Part shown: one piece after another, positions 34,021-45,133 of the stretch
Numbering within the stretch: the stretch's first letter is position 1
Layout of the letters: each line of letters opens with the position of its first letter
Assembly: GCF_050920415.1 (NCBI RefSeq)
Contig: NZ_CP169309.1
Strand: one strand, 5' to 3'
Length of the DNA: 64,000 nt
Source of the DNA: Escherichia coli
GTDB lineage: Bacteria > Pseudomonadota > Gammaproteobacteria > Enterobacterales > Enterobacteriaceae
The notes under the pieces: generated by a model
Told to the model about the DNA's origin: nothing
Seen by the model: only the letters and a program-made list of their open reading frames with translations
The model's database searches: none
Made by a program: the position numbers and the translations under genes

Positions 34021-34914
<894 letters not shown>

Positions 34915-34956
34915 TTACCTCATCAATCGCTTGTAGTTATATGTTGTGTTGTGCAC

Positions 34957-34988
34957 ATCTATCCGTTTAGACGTCCAGATGTAAAGAT
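34957..34988 (-). promoter_or_regulatory. MetJ operator (tandem met boxes) upstream of metF
   Basis: Minus-strand sequence ctttacatctggacgtctaaacggatagat contains tandem 8 bp repeats resembling the met-box consensus AGACGTCT. Confidence 0.75.
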
Positions 34989-35204
34989 GAAGGAAAAGCT
35001 GAAGGGCGTCAACCGAAAAATGACCAATGATGGTGAGGAAAAATCAGGGAAGATGAAAAAAATTCATCTTAATTAGAGGTAATAAATAGATTTCTTTATA
35101 GCGCAATCAACCTCACTCGTTTTGACTGATATACAGGCAACACAACGGCACCTGTTTCTCATTCGAAAAACAACGCCCTGCCACCAGATGGTGATGCTAA
35201 AGCA

Positions 35205-35245
35205 TCTGATTCGGCCTGCGCTCTCGTGTAGGCCGAATACAGAAT
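35205..35245. repeat. REP-like palindrome near the left edge of the metF-metL accessory segment
   Basis: Inverted repeat attcggcctgcgctctcgtgtaggccgaat. Confidence 0.4.
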
Positions 35246-35294
35246 CTGCGAAATCAACGGGTAACAAACAGCAGAGTCAACTCAGTGCGTACTT

Positions 35295-36850
35295 TTATTT
35301 AATATCTTTCACGCGCATACCGTTGATCTGTTCATCCGTGATGGTATTACCCGCTTTAAAGTAATCAACCACCGCGTGATAAACGTAATAACCGCCCGTC
35401 GTATTGCGCGCTTTACCCTCGGTAAACGCGGTAAAACCATCTCCACCATCAGCAAGGAAACTCTGAGTGGCAATGTGGTAAACCGTCGCATCTTCAATCG
35501 GTTTGCCATTCAAAGTCAGTGAGATAACCCGCTGACCAACCGGCTTGCTGCTGTCGTACTTCATTTCCAGGCCTTTCGATACCTGTAAAACGCCATTACT
35601 TAAACTTGCGCCGTGTTCCATCAAACTGCGTAATTGTTTACCCGTGAGATCCATCGTCACCAGTTCGTTGGGGAACGGGAAGGTACTGATGACGCCACCC
35701 ATCGTAATTGCACCCGCCGGGATCTCATTGCGAATCCCGCCAGAGTTGGTTAACGCCAACTGGGTATTTTTACCCGCCGCTGCCAGCAAAGCGTCCGCCG
35801 CCAGGTTCCCGAGGGAAGCCGATTCACCATAGGCACGTTTTAATTCAACCGGCGATTGCGCCACCGTTTGCTGACTTCATCCAGCTTTTTGTTCCAACTA
35901 TCAATCACCTGTTTCGTTTGCGGATCGGGCTTCCACTCATCGGCGTAAAGGGTTTTAAGCTCGAAGTTTTTCACCGTAAAAGTGTGCGGCTTCTCTTTGT
36001 AGTCGAGAACCAGTTTACCCACATCAATCCCGCCGCTGTCAGTGGAGAGGATTAACGTATTGCCGACTTTAATCGGTTCCGGCGTACCCACATGTGCATG
36101 CCCGGTGATCAAAATATCCAGCCCTTTCACCTGACTTGCCGTCTGAATATCTTTATCCAGCGCGCGACGCACATCTGTGCCTCCCATACTGGACTGGCGG
36201 GCCGGAACACCTTCGTGGATCAGGGCAACGGTCAAATCAACCTTGCCTTTGAGTTCATCGATATAACGTTGTAGCCATTTAATTTCATCACGCGCCTCAA
36301 TACCCACTCGCGTTGCCGCAGATACCGTATCATTAAAGGCAAATACACCGTGCAAACCAATCACGCCAATTTTCACGCCGTCTTTTTCAATGATGGTATA
36401 GGGCTTATCCCAGAATGATTTACTGCTGTTCTGATAAAAAACATTACCCTGCACAATCGGGAATTTTGCCTGACTCAGCTGTAATAACGTATTGTCCCAG
36501 CCGTGATCAAATTCATGATTACCTATAGTGACCGCATCGAACGGCATGGTATTCATAATATCGATAATCGCCTTGCCTTTAGTCAGGCTGCTGATATACG
36601 GCCCGGTAAAATAGTCACCCGCATCAAAAAACCAGGTCGCTTTGTTTTTAGCTTTTTCTTGTTTAACAAGCGTAGTGATATTTGCCCAGCCGCCAATATC
36701 TCGTTTACCGTCAGCAATCCACGGCACTTTATAAGGCTCTACATGTGCATGGAGGTCGTTGGTATAAATGATGGTGACATCTTTGGCGCAAGCCCAAAAC
36801 GGCAGTGTTAATGCGATACCCGCAGCAAGCATTTTAATTTTCATAAACAA
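35295..36850 (-). pseudogene. Frameshifted periplasmic 5'-nucleotidase/metallophosphatase paralog (UshA/CpdB-type two-domain enzyme)
   Basis: ORF 35840..36850 (336 aa, signal peptide MFMKIKMLAAGIALTLPFWA; metallophosphatase motifs NDLHAH, DAGDYF, GNHEFD, GHAH) is followed in another frame by ORF 35295..35864 (189 aa, nucleotidase C-terminal domain). The two parts align end-to-end with the intact downstream paralog, so a single frameshift near 35860-35875 splits one gene. Confidence 0.75.
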
Positions 36851-36903
36851 TCCCTTCCAGTGAGATAAAGGATTGCTACATTACGTTCTGAAAGGCTTTT
36901 TTA

Positions 36904-36919
36904 TGTGAGAATACTCACA
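36904..36919. promoter_or_regulatory. CRP-type palindrome (TGTGA-N6-TCACA) in the divergent promoter region
   Basis: tgtgagaatactcaca is a perfect match to both CRP half-sites with a 6 bp spacer, lying between the nucleotidase pseudogene start (36850) and the Cys-rich ORF start (36977). Confidence 0.55.
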
Positions 36920-36976
36920 TCCAGAGGCGATAACTGTAGGACAAAATCAACGACCTTATGAAATCGTTGGTGATAT

Positions 36977-38104
36977 ATGTCAAATCTGTTTGCGATTAAT
37001 GTCTGTAAAACGTTCGGTTGTCGAAATTTGGGATTGGCCTCATCGGAAGATTACAGTTGGCCAGACTATAAACTGGGTTTTCCGGCACTACACTGCCAGG
37101 CATGCGGAAGTTACCCCCCTTTGTTTGATGAACAACAATTTCGTGACTGGTTGTCAGTTCACATGACTACGTGTGCCATAGAAACAGGGCATTTTTGTCC
37201 ATCATGCTATTGTAAAGAAAAGATTTTTTATGGCCACAACCCGCAGGGAACACAACGCGTTCAATGCCGTTCATGCAAAAAAGTCTGGACTCCGAAACAG
37301 CAGCCAGCAAGAGAAATTACGTATCCCCAGTCCATTGAAACCGTTCAACTGTTCATGCCCTTTCAAGGAGCCAGCGCACTACAAAAGCTCTATGTTTTAG
37401 TCAGTCTTGACGCCACTCGTGGCAACATCCTTCATCTCTCCACGAATTATACGCAACATCAGACAGGAGACAGTCTGCGGTACAGTTACAGAGGCAATAC
37501 AGAACCAACTGAGCACCATAGCGATATTGTGCAGAGGGTAGATATGCGTGAAGCGCAATTCTTGCGCCGGAGCCAGTTCGATGAAATTCAGTATGGCAGT
37601 GCTGTGCTCAAGCGCAATGGCAAGGGAGCCATACTACGCCCGGTTATCACGGCACACGGGCATTTCAGAATACTGAAAATCCGCTTTCCACATGTCAAAA
37701 CGCATATCATTTCACACGAATGTTTTCTGAGAGGCGCAATTATTACAGCCTGGGCAGATCAGTTCCGCCAACAACAAGGCGAACTTTGGTTCGTAGAAGA
37801 AGAAATCAGCGACCGTAACGCTGATATTCCCTGGCATTTTCAGGGAACGACATACCATGGTTGGTGGCAAAATCAGTGGCAACGCTGGGGGCAGGGGAAT
37901 AACAGCAAGATGGTCTGCCTGCTCACAGGAGTCTCCTTAGAAAGGGGCGCAAATGTTTCTCTGGCAACCAGTCGTTGCTTTATCACATGGCTGACAGACC
38001 AACACGACTTTACCCAAAGCGCGTTATTATCCGCAGGTCGCGTAACGAAAATGCTGACCTCACTGGCGTTAAAATACAATGAATCGCTCAATCCATCTTG
38101 TTAG
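36977..38104 (+). CDS. Hypothetical cysteine-rich protein with an IS1 InsA-like N-terminal zinc ribbon
   Basis: 375 aa. N-terminal 100 aa carry CxxxxC, CxxC, CxxC and CxxC motifs (CKTFGC, CQAC, CPSC, CRSC); the stretch CPSC..RVQCRSCKKVW resembles the IS1 InsA zinc finger CPSC..RYLCSHCRKTW as I recall it. No recognisable DDE or HTH motif seen by eye in the remaining 270 aa. Flanked by AT-rich DNA. Confidence 0.6.
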   Translation: MSNLFAINVCKTFGCRNLGLASSEDYSWPDYKLGFPALHCQACGSYPPLFDEQQFRDWLSVHMTTCAIETGHFCPSCYCKEKIFYGHNPQGTQRVQCRSCKKVWTPKQQPAREITYPQSIETVQLFMPFQGASALQKLYVLVSLDATRGNILHLSTNYTQHQTGDSLRYSYRGNTEPTEHHSDIVQRVDMREAQFLRRSQFDEIQYGSAVLKRNGKGAILRPVITAHGHFRILKIRFPHVKTHIISHECFLRGAIITAWADQFRQQQGELWFVEEEISDRNADIPWHFQGTTYHGWWQNQWQRWGQGNNSKMVCLLTGVSLERGANVSLATSRCFITWLTDQHDFTQSALLSAGRVTKMLTSLALKYNESLNPSC

Positions 38105-38333
38105 TCAATACACTCGACAAACGACCATAAATTAATGGGATCACTATTTCTCATTTAATTAAATATATGAATGTATGACTGAAAAATATAATCACAGTCA
38201 ATGTTTAATTAATAACATTATTTGTTACTAAGATCACATAATACTTTCCTGACCTATGCTTACATAAAAATAAGACACGGAGTTCCTTTTATTTAAATAA
38301 TTCAACCAATGTAACAACCCCTATCAAGGAGGG

Positions 38334-39887
38334 ATGATGAGAACTGTATTTACGACTTTATCAGTCATATTCAGCGTGATGTTTTCTCACAGTATACTAG
38401 CTCAGGACGTTACTATTTATTATACGAATGATATTCACGCACATGTCAATCCGGCAAAAATTCCCGCTGTTGATAAGAACAGACTTGTAGGTGGTATGGC
38501 TAATATCGCAGGCATCGTTAATGAAGCGAAGAAAAAAAACAAAGATGTCTTTTTCTTTGATGCAGGCGACTATTTTACCGGTCCGTATATCAGTACCCTG
38601 ACCAAAGGTGAAGCTATTATTGATATCATGAACACCATGCCCTTTGATGCGGTGTCCGTTGGTAATCACGAGTTCGATCACGGCGTGCCCAATATGGTAT
38701 CTCAGTTATCAAAAGCAAAATTCCCCATTCTGCTGGGAAATATTTACTACACCGATACAAATAAACCAGTTTGGGATCATCCGTGGACCATTATCGAAAA
38801 AGATGGTTTAAAGATTGGTGTGATTGGATTGCATGGTGCATTCGCTTTCTATGATACAGTCGCGGCAAAAGCACGTGAAGGCGTAGAAGCCAGAGACGAA
38901 ATTAAATATTTAAATAAAGCACTTGCAGAATTAAAAGGTAAAGTCGACATTACCGTTTTGCTAATTCACGAAGGTGTTCCGGCGCGTCAATCAAGCTTTG
39001 GTAGTAAAGATGTGGAGCGGCTACTACAGGCAGATATTGAGACAGCTAAAAAAGTGAATGGTGTTGATGTCTTAATTACCGGTCACGCACATGTCGGAAC
39101 ACCGCAACCAATAAAAGTTAATAACACATTAATTGTATCTACCGATGCATACGGCACCGACATCGGAAAACTTGTGCTTGATTACAATCCGAAAACAAAG
39201 AAAATTGATAGTTATAATGGTGAGTTAATCACCATCTTTGCAGATCAATTTAAACCTGACACCATCGTTCAAAATACTATCGATAAATGGAGCGTAAAAC
39301 TTAACAAAATAACACAGGAAGTTGTCGGCCATTCTCCCGTAGTTTTAACACGTGAGTATGGCAGTTCTTCTTCTACCGGTAACCTTATTCTGGATGCAAT
39401 GATGGAAAAAACACCTGATGCCATTGCCGGATTTCAAAATAGCGGTGGGATGCGAGCTGATTTTCCTAAAGGTGATATCACACTGGGAGATGTTATTAGC
39501 ACATTCCCCTTTAATAATGACCTCATCGAGATGGATTTGACGGGCCGCGATCTCAAATCGTTGATGACGCATGCAACCAATCTAACTAACGGTGTGTTAC
39601 AGGTTTCAAAAAGCGTTGCGGTTGTCTATGACAGCAAAAAACCACTCAACCAACGGTTAATCTCTTTCACCATTAACGGCAAACCCGTGGAAGATAATCA
39701 AACATATCGTATTGCCACGCACTCCTTTTGTGCCAGTGGTGGTGACGGTTTTGAAGCATTTTTGAATGGAAAAAATGTGAAGACGATACCGGGAACAACC
39801 TCGGCGGAATCAATCATCGATTATTTCAAAAATCATAAACCTGTCACCCCAGACTTAACTAAACGAGTCATGGACGTCGCCAAATAA
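38334..39887 (+). CDS. Periplasmic 5'-nucleotidase/metallophosphatase (UshA/CpdB family), paralog B
   Basis: 517 aa; signal peptide MMRTVFTTLSVIFSVMFSHSILA; all metallophosphatase motifs present (NDIHAH, DAGDYF, GNHEFD, GHAH) plus a C-terminal nucleotidase domain. Strong RBS aggaggg; the start may be the second ATG at 38337. Confidence 0.8.
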   Translation: MMRTVFTTLSVIFSVMFSHSILAQDVTIYYTNDIHAHVNPAKIPAVDKNRLVGGMANIAGIVNEAKKKNKDVFFFDAGDYFTGPYISTLTKGEAIIDIMNTMPFDAVSVGNHEFDHGVPNMVSQLSKAKFPILLGNIYYTDTNKPVWDHPWTIIEKDGLKIGVIGLHGAFAFYDTVAAKAREGVEARDEIKYLNKALAELKGKVDITVLLIHEGVPARQSSFGSKDVERLLQADIETAKKVNGVDVLITGHAHVGTPQPIKVNNTLIVSTDAYGTDIGKLVLDYNPKTKKIDSYNGELITIFADQFKPDTIVQNTIDKWSVKLNKITQEVVGHSPVVLTREYGSSSSTGNLILDAMMEKTPDAIAGFQNSGGMRADFPKGDITLGDVISTFPFNNDLIEMDLTGRDLKSLMTHATNLTNGVLQVSKSVAVVYDSKKPLNQRLISFTINGKPVEDNQTYRIATHSFCASGGDGFEAFLNGKNVKTIPGTTSAESIIDYFKNHKPVTPDLTKRVMDVAK

Positions 39888-39921
39888 AATATCATTTATC
39901 AGTCTATATATTTAACAAGGA

Positions 39922-41547
39922 ATGCGAATGAAAACAGTGCAGCGTACTTTACTTGCCGCAACATTGCTGACTATTTTTTCGGTCTCAGTCATGGCGCAGG
40001 ATGGCACGATTATTTATACAAATGATCTTCACACTCATGTGGATTCTTATAAAGTGCCGTATATCGCAGACGGAAAACGCGACATTGGCGGCTTTGCCAA
40101 TATATCTACTTTAGTAAAACAAGAGAAAGCGAAAAATAAAGCCACCTTTTATTTTGATGCTGGAGACTATTTCACCGGCCCTTATATCAGCAGTCTGACA
40201 AAGGGCGAAGCAATAATTGACATTATGAATACCATGCCTTTTGACGCAGTATCAATCGGCAATCATGAGTTTGACCATGGCTGGGATAATGCCCTGCGAC
40301 AATTAAGCAAAGCGAATTTTCCTGTTTTATTGGGCAATGTTTATCATAAAGAGAGTGAGAAACCCTTCTGGAACAAGCCCTACACCATCCTGGAAAAAGA
40401 TGGCATCAAGATTGGTATTATTGGGCTACACGGCGTATTTGCATTTAATGATACGGTCTCGGAGCTCTCTCTCCAGGGACTCGATAATGACAATAATAAC
40501 CGCTTTGATAAATCTTCCGAGACCCTTAAGAATCAGGGGATTGAAGCACGTGATGAAGTGAAGTATTTGCAGCATTATATCGACGAGTTACGTGATAAGG
40601 TTGACCTCACTGTGGCGCTGGTTCATGAAGGCGTTCCGGCGCGTCAGTCCAGCATTGGCAATACAGATGTTAGACGCGCTCTTGATAAAGATATTCAAAC
40701 CGCTAGCAAGGTGAAAGGATTGGATATTCTGATTACCGGGCATGCCCACGTCGGAACGCCAGAACCAATCAAAGTCGGCAACACCTTAATCCTTTCGACT
40801 GATAGTGGCGGTATCGATATTGGTAAATTAGTCCTTGATGTCAACCCTACAGCTCGTACCCATAAAATGAAGAGCTTTGAGCTGAAAACAGTTTATGCCG
40901 ATGAATGGATACCCGATCCAACGACACAAAAAGTTATCAATGGCTGGAATAAAAAACTGGCGGATATTGTACGCCAACCAGTGGGTGAATCATCGATTGT
41001 ATTAACTCGCGCCTATGGTGAGTCATCGCAACTAGGCAACCTGTTTACCGATGCAATGCTTGTCGCTGCTCCGACTGCACAGATTGCATTGATAAACTCC
41101 GGCAGCTTACGTGCGGATATAAATGCAGGCACGATTACCTTTGGCGACATTACCAGTACATTCCCCTTCAAGAATGAACTTACTGAAATGGATCTCAGCG
41201 GTAAGGATCTGCGTAACCTACTGGAACACGGGGCATCGCTTACCAATGGCATCCTGCAAATGTCAAAAGGCGCAGAAATGCGCTATACCCCGCAGAAACC
41301 AGTAGGTCAGCGCATAGTATCTTTTAAAATTAATGGTGAAGAGATCGTTGATACGAATATTTACCATGTTGCAACAACGACTTTCCTTGCACTGGGGGGC
41401 GATGGTTTTCTGGCATTCAAAGAAGGGAAAAATGTTCAGGTCCGCGCCAGAAATAACATGTCCGATGTCGTGATCGATTATTTGAAGAAAGGCCACAAGA
41501 TTACGCCTGCACAGGTAAATGAAATGCGGGTGGACGTTAGCAAATAA
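39922..41547 (+). CDS. Periplasmic 5'-nucleotidase/metallophosphatase (UshA/CpdB family), paralog C
   Basis: 541 aa; signal peptide MRMKTVQRTLLAATLLTIFSVSVMA; metallophosphatase motifs intact. The N-terminal domain is about 80-85% identical to the frameshifted paralog and carries an extra N/D-rich segment of about 25 aa. Confidence 0.8.
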   Translation: MRMKTVQRTLLAATLLTIFSVSVMAQDGTIIYTNDLHTHVDSYKVPYIADGKRDIGGFANISTLVKQEKAKNKATFYFDAGDYFTGPYISSLTKGEAIIDIMNTMPFDAVSIGNHEFDHGWDNALRQLSKANFPVLLGNVYHKESEKPFWNKPYTILEKDGIKIGIIGLHGVFAFNDTVSELSLQGLDNDNNNRFDKSSETLKNQGIEARDEVKYLQHYIDELRDKVDLTVALVHEGVPARQSSIGNTDVRRALDKDIQTASKVKGLDILITGHAHVGTPEPIKVGNTLILSTDSGGIDIGKLVLDVNPTARTHKMKSFELKTVYADEWIPDPTTQKVINGWNKKLADIVRQPVGESSIVLTRAYGESSQLGNLFTDAMLVAAPTAQIALINSGSLRADINAGTITFGDITSTFPFKNELTEMDLSGKDLRNLLEHGASLTNGILQMSKGAEMRYTPQKPVGQRIVSFKINGEEIVDTNIYHVATTTFLALGGDGFLAFKEGKNVQVRARNNMSDVVIDYLKKGHKITPAQVNEMRVDVSK

Positions 41548-41558
41548 TAAAAAATTAT

Positions 41559-41594
41559 AATGCCATTCATTCACTGAATGGCATTATTTTTCTC
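41559..41594 (+). terminator. Intrinsic terminator after nucleotidase paralog C
   Basis: aatgccattca ttcac tgaatggcatt followed by a T-rich run. Confidence 0.6.
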
Positions 41595-41624
41595 TAAATC
41601 AACAATAAATAATGAGATATATTT

Positions 41625-42485
41625 ATGTGTATAAAAAAGCACGGGATAGCTTTATCGATTCTATTAATACCTTGCATTGGAAACGCTCAGGAAATTAAAA
41701 GTGAGGAAGGCTGGTTACATCAAAGCTTGAATGTCATTGGTCGCACAGACTCTCGCTTTGGCCCAAGGCTGACTAACGACCTCTACCCTGAATATACTGT
41801 AGCAGGAAGAAAAGACTGGTTTGATTTTTATGGTTATGTTGATCTACCAAAATTCTTTGGCGTCGGCAGTCACTATGATGTTGGGATCTGGGATGAGGGC
41901 TCACCACTATTTACGGAAATAGAACCTCGGTTTTCCATTGACAAATTGACCGGATTAAATCTTGCGTTCGGCCCTTTTAAAGAATGGTTCATTGCAAACA
42001 ACTATGTCTATGATATGGGTGACAACCAGTCATCCCGGCAAAGTACATGGTATATGGGGCTTGGTACAGATATCGACACGGGTCTACCAATTAAGCTTTC
42101 TGCCAATATATACACCAAGTATCAGTGGCAAAACTATGGTGCCGCTAATGAAAATGAATGGGACGGATATCGATTCAAAATAAAATATAGCATTCCTCTT
42201 ACCCATTTATTCGGAGGGCGATTGGTATACAATAGTTTTACTAACTTTGATTTTGGCTCCGATCTTGCGGACAAATCACACAATAATAAACGAACCAGTA
42301 ATGCTATTGCTTCAAGCCATATCCTTTCCCTGCTATATGAACACTGGAAATTTGCATTTACACTACGTTATTTTCACAACGGTGGACAATGGAATGCTGG
42401 GGAGAAAGTTAACTTCGGAGATGGTCCATTTGAATTAAAAAACACAGGATGGGGAACCTATACTACTATTGGTTATCAATTTTAA
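41625..42485 (+). CDS. Tsx-family nucleoside-specific outer membrane channel paralog
   Basis: 286 aa; aligns along its whole length with E. coli Tsx as I recall it (e.g. [63 protein letters not shown]). Signal peptide present. Confidence 0.8.
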
Positions 42486-42664
42486 ATCAGGTGATGTTTT
42501 AGATATTTTTACTTAATGCCATTTTGTAATTGTCATAAATAACTTCACCATTCACACTGTGAATTCATCGCTCAACACAAAAGCCCCTTATTACCGGGGC
42601 ACTGACCAAAGGCAAAATGACAATCAATCACCACCTCCGCAGGAGGTGGTTTAGAGGTGACAAC

Positions 42665-42690
42665 AAAAGCTGGCAACTGCCAGCTTTTGT
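42665..42690. terminator. Bidirectional intrinsic terminator downstream of metL
   Basis: aaaagctggcaactgccagctttt, a perfect hairpin flanked by an A-run and a T-run. Confidence 0.7.
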
Positions 42691-42700
42691 TCAATAATCA

Positions 42701-45133
42701 CTACAACAACTGCGCCAGACGGTTAATATCCGACTGAATCGCCCCGGCGGTGACGTCGCGCCCTGCACCTGGCCCGCGGATCACCAGCGGGTTGTCGCGA
42801 TACCAGCGGCTTTCGATGGCAAAGACGTTATCGCACGGTAGTAGTGATGCCAGCGGATGGTCTTCTCGCACCGCTTCCACGCCTACTCGCGCTTTGCCGT
42901 TGGCATCGAAACGCGCCACGTAGCGCAACACCAGCCCCATTTCACGGGCCGCTTCCAACCGTTGTACCATCTGCTCATTAAGTTCATCGCCATTTTCAAA
43001 GAAATGGTCGATGCTTCCACCTTCGCAATGGGTTGGCACCAGTGATTCAACACGCACCTGGTCCGGTTCAATGTTGTAACCCGCTTCACGCGCCAGAATC
43101 ACCAGCTTGCGCATCACGTCTTTGCCGGAGAGGTCATCACGCGGGTCAGGTTCAGTTAAGCCCTGCTGCCACGCCTGATCCACCAGCTCGGTAAACGGCA
43201 CGCTACCGTCGAATTGCAGGAACAGCCAGGAGAGTGTGCCGGAGAAGATCCCGCTGATCGACAAAATAGTGTCGCCGCTGTCGATCAGATCGCGCACGGT
43301 ATGGTTGATCGGCAAACCTGCGCCGACGGTGGCGTTGTATAGCCAGTGACGCCCGGTTTTTTCGAACGCGTCGTGGATCTGGCGATATTTATTGCTGTCG
43401 CTCGCTCCCGCCAGTTTGTTGGCACTGATGACGTGGAAACCGTGGCTGGCGAAATCGAGGTATTGATCGGCCAGTTGCTGACTGGCGGTAACGTCCAGCA
43501 CCACTAAATCATCATACGGATGGGCACGCATCCACAGGAACAGCGACTCTTCATCCTGTTCGACGGCTTCATCATTAAAGAAGGCTAGCGCACGGCTGGC
43601 GTCCAGCCCGTCATAGCTCAACAGGCTGCGACGGCTGTCCACCACGCCTGCCAGCACAAATTCAAAGCCGGTGCGCGCCGAGAGCGTGCTCTGCTCACGG
43701 GCGAACAGTTCCAGCCAGCGGGAACCGATATTGCCCTTACCGAACAATACCAGGCCGATGCGTTTTTCTGCGCGGAAGACGGACTGATGCAGCCCCTGAA
43801 TCAGGCTTTCGGTCGGCCCGGTGCGCAGTACTGCCACCAGGCTGATGCCGTCATCGGACTGCCAGGTAAACTCGACCGGCTGGCCTTTCAGTTGCTGCCA
43901 GAAGCGGTGGCAATGCAGCGGGTTACGGGTGACGCCCGCCCCAACCATCGCCACCAGCGCCAGCCCCTGACGCAGGCGCAGTTCGCCAGGTAATCCTGCT
44001 TCGTCGAGGATTTTCAGCGCACTGTCGGCCACTTCCGAGGTGTAGCAAAATTGCAGCAACTGGCGATCGTTATGCACGCCAACCGCCAGTGGGCGCACCT
44101 GAGCACGTTTCAGGATTTGGTCGATCTCTTTATGCGCCAGTTTGAAATCCTGACTGGCGGGCACCTGAAACTCAATCAAACAGACATCATCGTGGCTGGT
44201 GACAATACGCGCGCCCGTACCGGAAGCCAGCACGCGTTCAATGCGCGTGGAACCTTGATCCGGTGTATAGCTACAGCGCAGCTGCAGGTCGATTTCACTG
44301 CCAGAAACTGGCTGTAAAGTACGCGCGTGCAACACTGGCGCGGCAAGACGCGCCAGTTCGCTGGCTTCATCAAGACGCAGCAATGGCAGCAGACAGGCAT
44401 CTTTCACTTTACGCGGGTCGGCGCTATATACCCCGGCGACGTCACTCCAGATGGTTACGCGGGAAACTCCCGCCAGCGCACCGATTTGTGTCGCGGAATA
44501 GTCGGAACCGTTACGCCCCAGCAGCACCGTTTCACCGGCGTTGTTACGGCTGATAAACCCGGTCACCACCAGACGTTTGCCCGGATGTTGTACCAGTAGC
44601 TGTTGCAGCAACGGGTAAGAAAGCCCTTCATCAACCTGCGGCTGCGCGGCGCGTTCAGCGCGTAAAAACTCGCGGGCATCAAGCCAGGCCGCTGGCAATC
44701 CTTGTTGATTAAGTACCGCAGACATCAGGCGCGCCGACCACACTTCACCGTGGCCCACCACTTCCGCATACACCGCATCGTTAATACCGCTGTCGAGCAG
44801 CGCCGCCAGGCGTTCCAGATCGCTGACAAAAGCGCTAATGAGGCTATCGGCTTCTTCAGCGGGTAGCAGGCCGCTAATCAGATCGCACTGATAACGACGT
44901 AGCGTTTGTTGAACCTGATGCGCAGAGAGACGATCGGTCTGGCTTAGTTTCAACCAGTTAATCAACTGGTTAGTGGTGCTACCGGCGGCGGAAACCACCA
45001 TCATATCGTCAGGCTGAGAGTACTCCGCCATAATGCCCGCGACACGCAAATAACACTTCACATCAGCCAGACTACTGCCACCAAATTTATGCAGTTGACG
45101 ACCTTTCGCCCCTGCCTGCGCAATCACACTCAT
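42701..45133 (-). CDS. metL: Bifunctional aspartokinase II / homoserine dehydrogenase II
   Basis: 810 aa, MSVIAQAGAKGRQLHKFGGSSLADVKCYLRVAGIMAEY... Confidence 0.96.
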   Translation of the reverse strand: MSVIAQAGAKGRQLHKFGGSSLADVKCYLRVAGIMAEYSQPDDMMVVSAAGSTTNQLINWLKLSQTDRLSAHQVQQTLRRYQCDLISGLLPAEEADSLISAFVSDLERLAALLDSGINDAVYAEVVGHGEVWSARLMSAVLNQQGLPAAWLDAREFLRAERAAQPQVDEGLSYPLLQQLLVQHPGKRLVVTGFISRNNAGETVLLGRNGSDYSATQIGALAGVSRVTIWSDVAGVYSADPRKVKDACLLPLLRLDEASELARLAAPVLHARTLQPVSGSEIDLQLRCSYTPDQGSTRIERVLASGTGARIVTSHDDVCLIEFQVPASQDFKLAHKEIDQILKRAQVRPLAVGVHNDRQLLQFCYTSEVADSALKILDEAGLPGELRLRQGLALVAMVGAGVTRNPLHCHRFWQQLKGQPVEFTWQSDDGISLVAVLRTGPTESLIQGLHQSVFRAEKRIGLVLFGKGNIGSRWLELFAREQSTLSARTGFEFVLAGVVDSRRSLLSYDGLDASRALAFFNDEAVEQDEESLFLWMRAHPYDDLVVLDVTASQQLADQYLDFASHGFHVISANKLAGASDSNKYRQIHDAFEKTGRHWLYNATVGAGLPINHTVRDLIDSGDTILSISGIFSGTLSWLFLQFDGSVPFTELVDQAWQQGLTEPDPRDDLSGKDVMRKLVILAREAGYNIEPDQVRVESLVPTHCEGGSIDHFFENGDELNEQMVQRLEAAREMGLVLRYVARFDANGKARVGVEAVREDHPLASLLPCDNVFAIESRWYRDNPLVIRGPGAGRDVTAGAIQSDINRLAQLL

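Follow-up and report, generated by a model that had tools for sequence, protein, structure and literature searches.

In the window, that is, the whole 64-kb stretch of Escherichia coli chromosome analysed here, the ORF list and the annotation give the local gene order katG, metF, a 7.6-kb insert, metL, metB and metJ. The insert lies between metF (34021-34911, minus strand) and metL (42701-45133, minus strand), which encodes aspartate kinase/homoserine dehydrogenase II and whose stop codon TAG occupies positions 42701-42703. According to a BLAST comparison with the K-12 spacer and to the annotation of an identical strain, the island-specific segment extends from 35067 to 42701, and it comprises a frameshifted 5'-nucleotidase gene (minus strand), a gene for a 375-aa hypothetical protein, two intact 5'-nucleotidase genes, a tsx-like gene and the spacer that is the subject of this analysis. 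The tsx-like gene (41625-42485, plus strand) is an intact ORF of 286 aa for an outer-membrane nucleoside channel, as indicated by the ORF list and by Pfam PF03502 on its homologues. It converges with metL, and the two stops, at 42485 and 42701, enclose a spacer of 215 bp (42486-42700). From the tsx-like side, this spacer contains a palindrome (42550-42564), a small GC hairpin (hairpin 2, 42573-42600 with its tail), a conserved core (42601-42627), a larger GC hairpin (hairpin 3, 42630-42650) and a predicted bidirectional intrinsic terminator (42662-42691).

The island between metL and metF has been described as GR31 of the APEC strain BEN2908 and of other ExPEC strains, with a cargo of three UshA-like nucleotidase genes and a Tsx homologue (PMC12928451). 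GR31 is the same island in the same place, differing from the window in that the first nucleotidase gene of the latter is frameshifted; the passages on GR31 deal with the genes and not with the non-coding 3' region (PMC12928451).

Several further observations were made in the island. Its first 5'-nucleotidase gene (35295-36850, minus strand) falls into two ORFs, 35295-35864 and 35840-36850; it is frameshifted according to RefSeq in an identical strain, and B2-type strains have an intact gene of 517 aa. A REP-like palindromic sequence (ttcggcctgcgctctcgtgtaggccgaa, 35205-35240) is located in the left island-specific spacer, beside this nucleotidase pseudogene. The 375-aa hypothetical protein (36977-38104, plus strand) is cysteine-rich, with several CxxC motifs, and otherwise uncharacterised; its similarity to the IS1-type N-terminal zinc-binding domain was sub-threshold (E = 7e-4, 19.6 bits, cut-off 100). 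Between the third nucleotidase gene and the tsx-like gene there is a perfect 10-bp stem (ATGCCATTCA / TGAATGGCAT, loop TTCAC) followed by TATTTTTCTC (41560-41596), which resembles a terminator or attenuator preceding tsx-like; if this stem terminates transcription, tsx-like would need its own promoter or read-through. RefSeq calls the tsx-like gene a pseudogene ('missing C-terminus') in strain MFDS1022581 (locus L001, 8640-9485), the sequence of which is identical to the window. The ORF of that strain is full length, with 286 aa, and is 99% identical to alleles annotated as intact, and the pseudogene label looks like an annotation quirk. Two sequence matches to other parts of the island were judged to be due to chance: the 8-mer CCATTCAC, common to the spacer and to the hairpin upstream of tsx-like (41560-41584), and an inverted match of 30 nt (73%) that links 42644-42673 with a part of the nucleotidase pseudogene (35881-35910).

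Layouts and alleles of the metF-metL slot

Of 5426 complete E. coli genomes, 660 contain the 215-bp spacer, always once and always on the chromosome, and 660 contain the tsx-like gene; the two were adjacent in every locus opened. A full K-12-type spacer was present in 3576 of the 5426 genomes, which leaves, by subtraction, roughly 1190 genomes with other metF-metL layouts, two of which were inspected. In strain 7/2 the island is short, being made up of the first nucleotidase gene and the hypothetical gene only, the latter in a diverged allele whose 3' end overlaps metL by 37 bp; a further layout combines the short island with a PTS EIIC gene and malI. Five metF-metL layouts were seen (window 34912-42700; loci L002, L006, L008, L089 and L090), their types being the K-12-type spacer of 348 bp with a REP-like element, the short island, the short island with PTS EIIC and malI, the full island with the tsx module and, in Citrobacter, two versions with differing genes between tsx-like and metL. 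The metL-side breakpoint coincided with the metL stop codon in all of these layouts.

The spacer occurs in E. coli as two main alleles: the window type, carried by 101 genomes (at least 99% identity), and a B2-type, carried by 553 genomes (about 92.6% identity), among them CFT073, UTI89, 536 and E2348/69. Divergence between the window and B2 types amounts to 7.4% in the spacer, compared with 9-13% in the other island spacers, 2.3% in tsx-like and 4.3% in metL. Two parts of the spacer do not vary between the aligned E. coli alleles, namely the terminator (42662-42691) and the block 42601-42634. In strain Z1323HEC0300 (locus L095) the spacer is a mosaic that follows the B2 type toward tsx and the window type toward metL, with the allele switch located between 42537 and 42556; this strain is a plain recombinant and shows homologous recombination between the two island alleles.

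A close relative of the tsx-like gene was searched for in 100,044 species-representative genomes, and the best 80 loci contained only the canonical tsx, at 60-68% identity. The protein database yielded a single cluster at about 85% identity, formed by Citrobacter enshiensis strains and a few metagenomic contigs. C. enshiensis CP119862 carries the same island in the same place, between metF and metL, with an extra gene for a 327-aa membrane protein and a REP-like element between tsx-like and metL, and Citrobacter sp. S2-9 has in the same slot a lysR-type gene (minus strand), a CMD-domain gene and REP-like elements. A distant-mode search of all complete E. coli genomes with the Citrobacter 327-aa gene and its flank gave no match. 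The E. coli spacer can be aligned with the 3' flank of the Citrobacter tsx-like gene from the stop codon to about 42627, at 66% identity. The remaining 73 bp (42628-42700), which hold hairpin 3 and the terminator, have no counterpart in Citrobacter and fill the slot in which Citrobacter carries 1.3-1.6 kb of cargo. The cargo between metF and metL varies in E. coli as well as in Citrobacter, and this variable slot may be of interest to researchers working on recombination hotspots.

The island boundary and the palindrome

The junctions of the island were mapped by BLAST alignment of the window to the 348-bp metL-metF spacer of K-12 MG1655. This spacer matches the window at 34848-35066 and at 42702-42763 only, with nothing in between, and the breakpoints are therefore located at 35066/35067 on the metF side and at 42701/42702 on the metL side, inside the metL stop codon. 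In place of the island segment 35067-42701, K-12 has about 195 bp of unrelated DNA. As homology resumes only at 42702, the whole 215-bp spacer is island-specific, including the "metL terminator". The original prediction had described the latter as the metL bidirectional terminator, and its 14-bp inverted repeat is indeed present, but the sequence belongs to the island and differs from the one that follows metL in K-12. The prediction had also placed the right island junction in this stretch. This was borne out in so far as the stretch is island-specific and absent from K-12-type genomes, which contradicts the possibility that it is ancestral intergenic sequence shared with island-free strains; however, the palindrome and the hairpin that were thought to mark the insertion lie about 137 and 50 bp, respectively, inside the right breakpoint. 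The metL-side boundary is found at the metL stop, in short-island strains too, plausibly because DNA past the reading frame is less constrained.

The palindrome had been reported as a 13-bp sequence (TTCACACTGTGAA) at 42551-42563, with TCACA/TGTGA halves in a non-canonical arrangement. The coordinates are right and the sequence extends to a perfect palindrome of 15 bp, ATTCACA-C-TGTGAAT (42550-42564), in which the two halves stand in reversed order with a 1-bp spacer. Its frequency was compared with chance by means of dinucleotide shuffles of the window and of the 215-bp spacer. The 64-kb window contains 22 odd palindromes of 13 bp, against 19.4 +/- 4.8 expected, and four of 15 bp, against 5.0 expected, while for the 215-bp spacer by itself the p values are about 0.13 for a 13-bp and about 0.04 for a 15-bp palindrome. 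In the B2-type allele the palindrome reads ATTCACTCTGTTACT, with three of the seven pairs broken (at 42556, 42561 and 42563), and it is broken in 553 of the 660 spacer-bearing E. coli genomes. The RNA hairpin predicted from it has -3.4 kcal/mol in the window allele, versus 0, no hairpin, in the B2 allele. No counterpart was found in the Citrobacter versions. At two of the three broken positions Citrobacter agrees with the B2 form in an alignment that is only about 66% identical there, a weak hint that the perfect palindrome may be the derived state. A quasi-palindrome template switch was considered as a single event and rejected, since the left arm (42556) and the right arm (42561 and 42563) are both changed. 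The palindrome does not go beyond chance and is specific to one E. coli lineage.

The suggestion that the palindrome and the hairpin are recombination scars, or site-specific recombination sites marking the insertion, draws on the island-specific nature of the stretch and its place beside the right boundary, and on the metF-metL spacer being a variable hotspot with several cargo configurations. In addition, hairpin 3 starts 3 nt past the break in homology between E. coli and Citrobacter (about 42627), and hence in the variable slot. This reading is nevertheless very unlikely, given that the boundary with both K-12 and short-island strains is at the metL stop, 50-137 bp away. No direct or inverted repeats joining the two island ends (35066/35067 and 42701/42702) were found, and the annotation of the island lists no integrase gene, the sole transposase-like signal being the sub-threshold IS1-type zinc-ribbon match mentioned above. 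As for the palindrome itself, it is polymorphic, at chance level, off the boundary and, in the majority allele, broken by three substitutions, which speaks against its being a scar. The spacer is better read as island DNA that travels with the tsx-like gene than as an insertion scar.

The alternative of a protein-binding site, also put forward in the original prediction, would make TTCACA-C-TGTGAA an operator for a CRP-like protein or for the 375-aa protein encoded in the island. In favour of this are the dyad itself, perfect over 15 bp and with TGTGA/TCACA halves, and the presence in the island of this uncharacterised protein with its cysteine-rich motifs. The consensus of CRP (cAMP receptor protein) is TGTGA-N6-TCACA, so that both it and the palindrome hold the pentamers TCACA and TGTGA; in the palindrome, however, their order is inverted and they are separated by 1 bp, compared with 6 bp in the CRP site. 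Moreover, the palindrome is located 3' of a gene, 553 of the 660 genomes lack three of its seven pairs, it is absent in Citrobacter, and its frequency is that expected by chance. A second copy of the motif was not found in the window (one match, against 0.74 expected), nor any regulon-like recurrence. An operator function is accordingly regarded as highly improbable, and the palindrome appears to have no supportable role.

The map of the known ExPEC-associated island GR31 is corrected by these results in that island-specific DNA reaches the metL stop codon, from which we infer that island-bearing strains terminate metL by another terminator than K-12.

Predicted terminator, hairpins and conserved core

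The predicted terminator of the spacer is a perfect 14-bp inverted repeat (AACAAAAGCTGGCA-AC-TGCCAGCTTTTGTT), in which 42662-42675 pairs with 42678-42691 (14-nt arms, 100% complementary) and which is flanked by an A-run and a T-run. Its stem of 13-14 bp has a predicted energy of about -20 to -21 kcal/mol on either strand, with the U-tract TTTTGTT on the plus strand and TTTTGTTGT on the minus strand, and it starts 10 nt downstream of the stop codon of metL and 177 nt downstream of that of tsx-like. In its stem, its U-tract and its position after a stop codon it has the structure of an intrinsic terminator. It is invariant in all E. coli alleles aligned, and absent from K-12 and from Citrobacter.

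The 215-nt spacer as a whole folds far better than its shuffles (z = -6.4 on the plus strand and -4.3 on the minus strand). It holds four stems of at least 9 bp with loops of 3-8 nt, the four being nested registers of two hairpins, against 0.011 expected; none of 2000 shuffles reached this count, so that hairpin 3 and the main terminator are considered non-random. Hairpin 3 is the GC hairpin of the original prediction, which proved real and extends over 42630-42650, with a 9-bp stem (ACCACCTCC/GGAGGTGGT) and a 3-nt loop (GCA), as seen in the sequence, the terminator scan and the shuffles. Among the roles that had been offered for the two elements, an RNA structure is reasonable for this hairpin. 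The tails of hairpin 3 read GATTGATTGT on the minus strand and TTTAGAGG on the plus strand, and its U-tract is marginal. The B2 allele keeps eight of the nine pairs, one of them compensated (42635-42645, C-G to T-A), whereas pair 42633-42647 is broken and the loop is changed, and the energy is -16 kcal/mol in the window allele versus -8.5 kcal/mol in the B2 (majority) allele. Due to the poor T-run on both strands and the weakened majority allele, a terminator role of hairpin 3 is doubtful. This hairpin is E. coli-specific and is not conserved outside the species.

Hairpin 2, which was absent from the original prediction, was identified by the terminator scan and by folding. It consists of the stem GCCCC/GGGGC at 42583-42600 (GCCCC-TTATTACC-GGGGC, with five pairs, all G-C, and an 8-nt loop) and of the minus-strand tail TTTTGTGTTG (42582-42573), so that the feature as a whole covers 42573-42600 on the minus strand. 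A T-run is present on the minus strand only, and the terminator scan flagged both hairpins 2 and 3 as terminator-like on that strand. The lengths of the C- and G-runs are 4/4 in the window, 5/4 in most close relatives and 5/5 in the B2-type, with the stem kept in each case. The C-run 42584-42587 and the G-run 42596-42599 vary even among relatives that are 99.5% identical, and these differences could represent real slippage or homopolymer errors in some assemblies.

Hairpin 2 recurs in the same place, with other stem sequences and a minus-strand U-run, in C. enshiensis and in the metagenomic relatives, and it is the sole structure conserved across genera. In the E. coli alleles and the Citrobacter-type sequences it has -10 to -18 kcal/mol despite the differing stems, and the minus-strand U-run is always present (UUUUGUGUUG in E. 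coli, UUAUUUUAG in Citrobacter). Covariation in the spacer, over five distinct sequences, amounted to one compensated pair, a score reached by 67 of 500 shuffles and thus not significant. With its stem and U-run, hairpin 2 looks like a minus-strand intrinsic terminator. The lysR-type gene of Citrobacter sp. S2-9 is read on the minus strand toward hairpin 2 and stops about 75 nt short of it, an arrangement that would fit hairpin 2 as the terminator of that gene. Against a terminator, the next downstream gene in CP119862 is on the plus strand, and there is no obvious minus-strand gene to terminate.

The core CTGACCAAAGGnAAAAnGAnAAT (42601-42627) is the last stretch that can be aligned with Citrobacter. 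It is conserved and predicted to be mostly unpaired, and its conservation is left unexplained by a plain terminator model. Read as CTGACCAAAGGCAAAATGACAAT over the same positions, the core is invariant in E. coli and near-invariant in Citrobacter and the metagenomic relatives.

One explanation for the core would be a minus-strand small regulatory RNA of about 80 nt, either independent or derived from the metL 3' UTR, in which hairpin 3 would be the 5' stem-loop, the core a seed or Hfq site, and hairpin 2 with its U-run the terminator. The layout fits, with a stem-loop, a conserved single-stranded U-rich core and a GC stem with a U-tail; the core is the part best conserved between E. coli and Citrobacter, and hairpin 2 is conserved as a structure. 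A promoter-like site was also found on the minus strand of C. enshiensis (11075-11046). That site, however, lies beyond the point at which two Citrobacter strains diverge, and is therefore unconserved, and promoter-like sites in C. enshiensis occur at chance frequency (2 versus 2.0 expected), while the scan detected no minus-strand promoter-like site in the E. coli spacer. Moreover, the candidate folds only modestly better than expected, with z-scores of -2.5 for the window allele, -1.0 for B2 and -0.9 for Citrobacter, Rfam gave no match, and the putative 5' stem-loop, hairpin 3, is not conserved outside E. coli. Taken together, a small RNA of this kind is unlikely. The narrower proposal, that the core and the minus-strand hairpin (42573-42600) form the body of a small RNA travelling with the nucleotidase/tsx-like island, is rated as quite unlikely; its source would be a fragment of the metL 3' UTR in E. 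coli, or a promoter of its own in Citrobacter.

A coding function of the spacer was considered as well, in the form of a 20-aa ORF on the minus strand (42627-42565) or a 31-aa ORF on the plus strand (42559-42654). Small ORFs do exist on both strands, the minus-strand one having a Shine-Dalgarno-like GGAGG, inside hairpin 3, 6 nt upstream of its TTG start, and the differences between the E. coli and Citrobacter cores can be read as conservative or synonymous in both frames. Nevertheless, small ORFs on both strands were rejected because hairpin 2 varies in run length (4/4, 5/4 or 5/5), and these indels put any ORF passing through it into different frames in different E. coli alleles. In addition, the B2 allele carries GTT in place of the GTG with which the plus-strand ORF starts. 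In the matching minus-strand frame of Citrobacter, none of the start codons ATG, GTG and TTG precedes the core, and an internal TTG leaves 16 aa; a terminator-like hairpin would also truncate the minus-strand ORF. A small protein encoded here is extremely improbable.

Proposed reading and comparison with known systems

The 215 bp would constitute the shared 3' region of two convergent units, tsx-like on the plus strand and metL on the minus strand. Judging from its anatomy, the stem at 42662-42691 probably terminates both units, and the hairpins at 42630-42650 and 42583-42600 would lie in the 3' UTR of tsx-like. These two hairpins are most likely back-up terminators, which may keep transcripts that read through from metL from continuing antisense into tsx-like; protection of the 3' end of the tsx-like mRNA is a further possible role. 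No function is proposed for the palindrome at 42550-42564. We assign a probability of about 75% to this overall reading of a convergent-gene 3' region with a bidirectional terminator, two back-up hairpins and a functionless palindrome.

On this account, the region is an ordinary terminator stretch of an island that has already been published, the palindrome carries no signal, and the stretch matters little. The tsx-like gene is accompanied, wherever it was found, by a conserved 3' flank of about 140 nt that includes one conserved hairpin, and the one feature of some further interest is the pairing of conserved core and conserved hairpin 2 downstream of tsx-like.

Among the known systems, dispersed extragenic repeats of the REP/BIME type resemble the spacer hairpins in being GC-rich palindromic hairpins beside metL, where REP-like sequences are indeed present in K-12 and in both Citrobacter versions. 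In contrast to these, the spacer hairpins are without the REP consensus and single-copy in all 660 genomes; with one place per genome in 660 of 660, the sequence is not a dispersed repeat, be it REP/BIME, ERIC or MITE. A covariance-model search against Rfam 15 with an E-value limit of 10 returned nothing in 42486-42700; the lone match, a snoRNA at 41953-42040, was judged spurious.

A closer likeness is found with tandem or back-up terminators and with stabilising stem-loops of 3' UTRs, which likewise correspond to two further GC hairpins 3' of metL with T-rich tails, although hairpin 3 departs from them by its weak T-run and its degradation in the majority allele, and the function is a predicted one. 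Finally, the stem at 42662-42691 is like the bidirectional Rho-independent terminators of convergent genes, with its GC-containing perfect stem, its A- and T-runs and the stops converging on it, and it is peculiar only in that it is borne by the island and is not the metL terminator of K-12.
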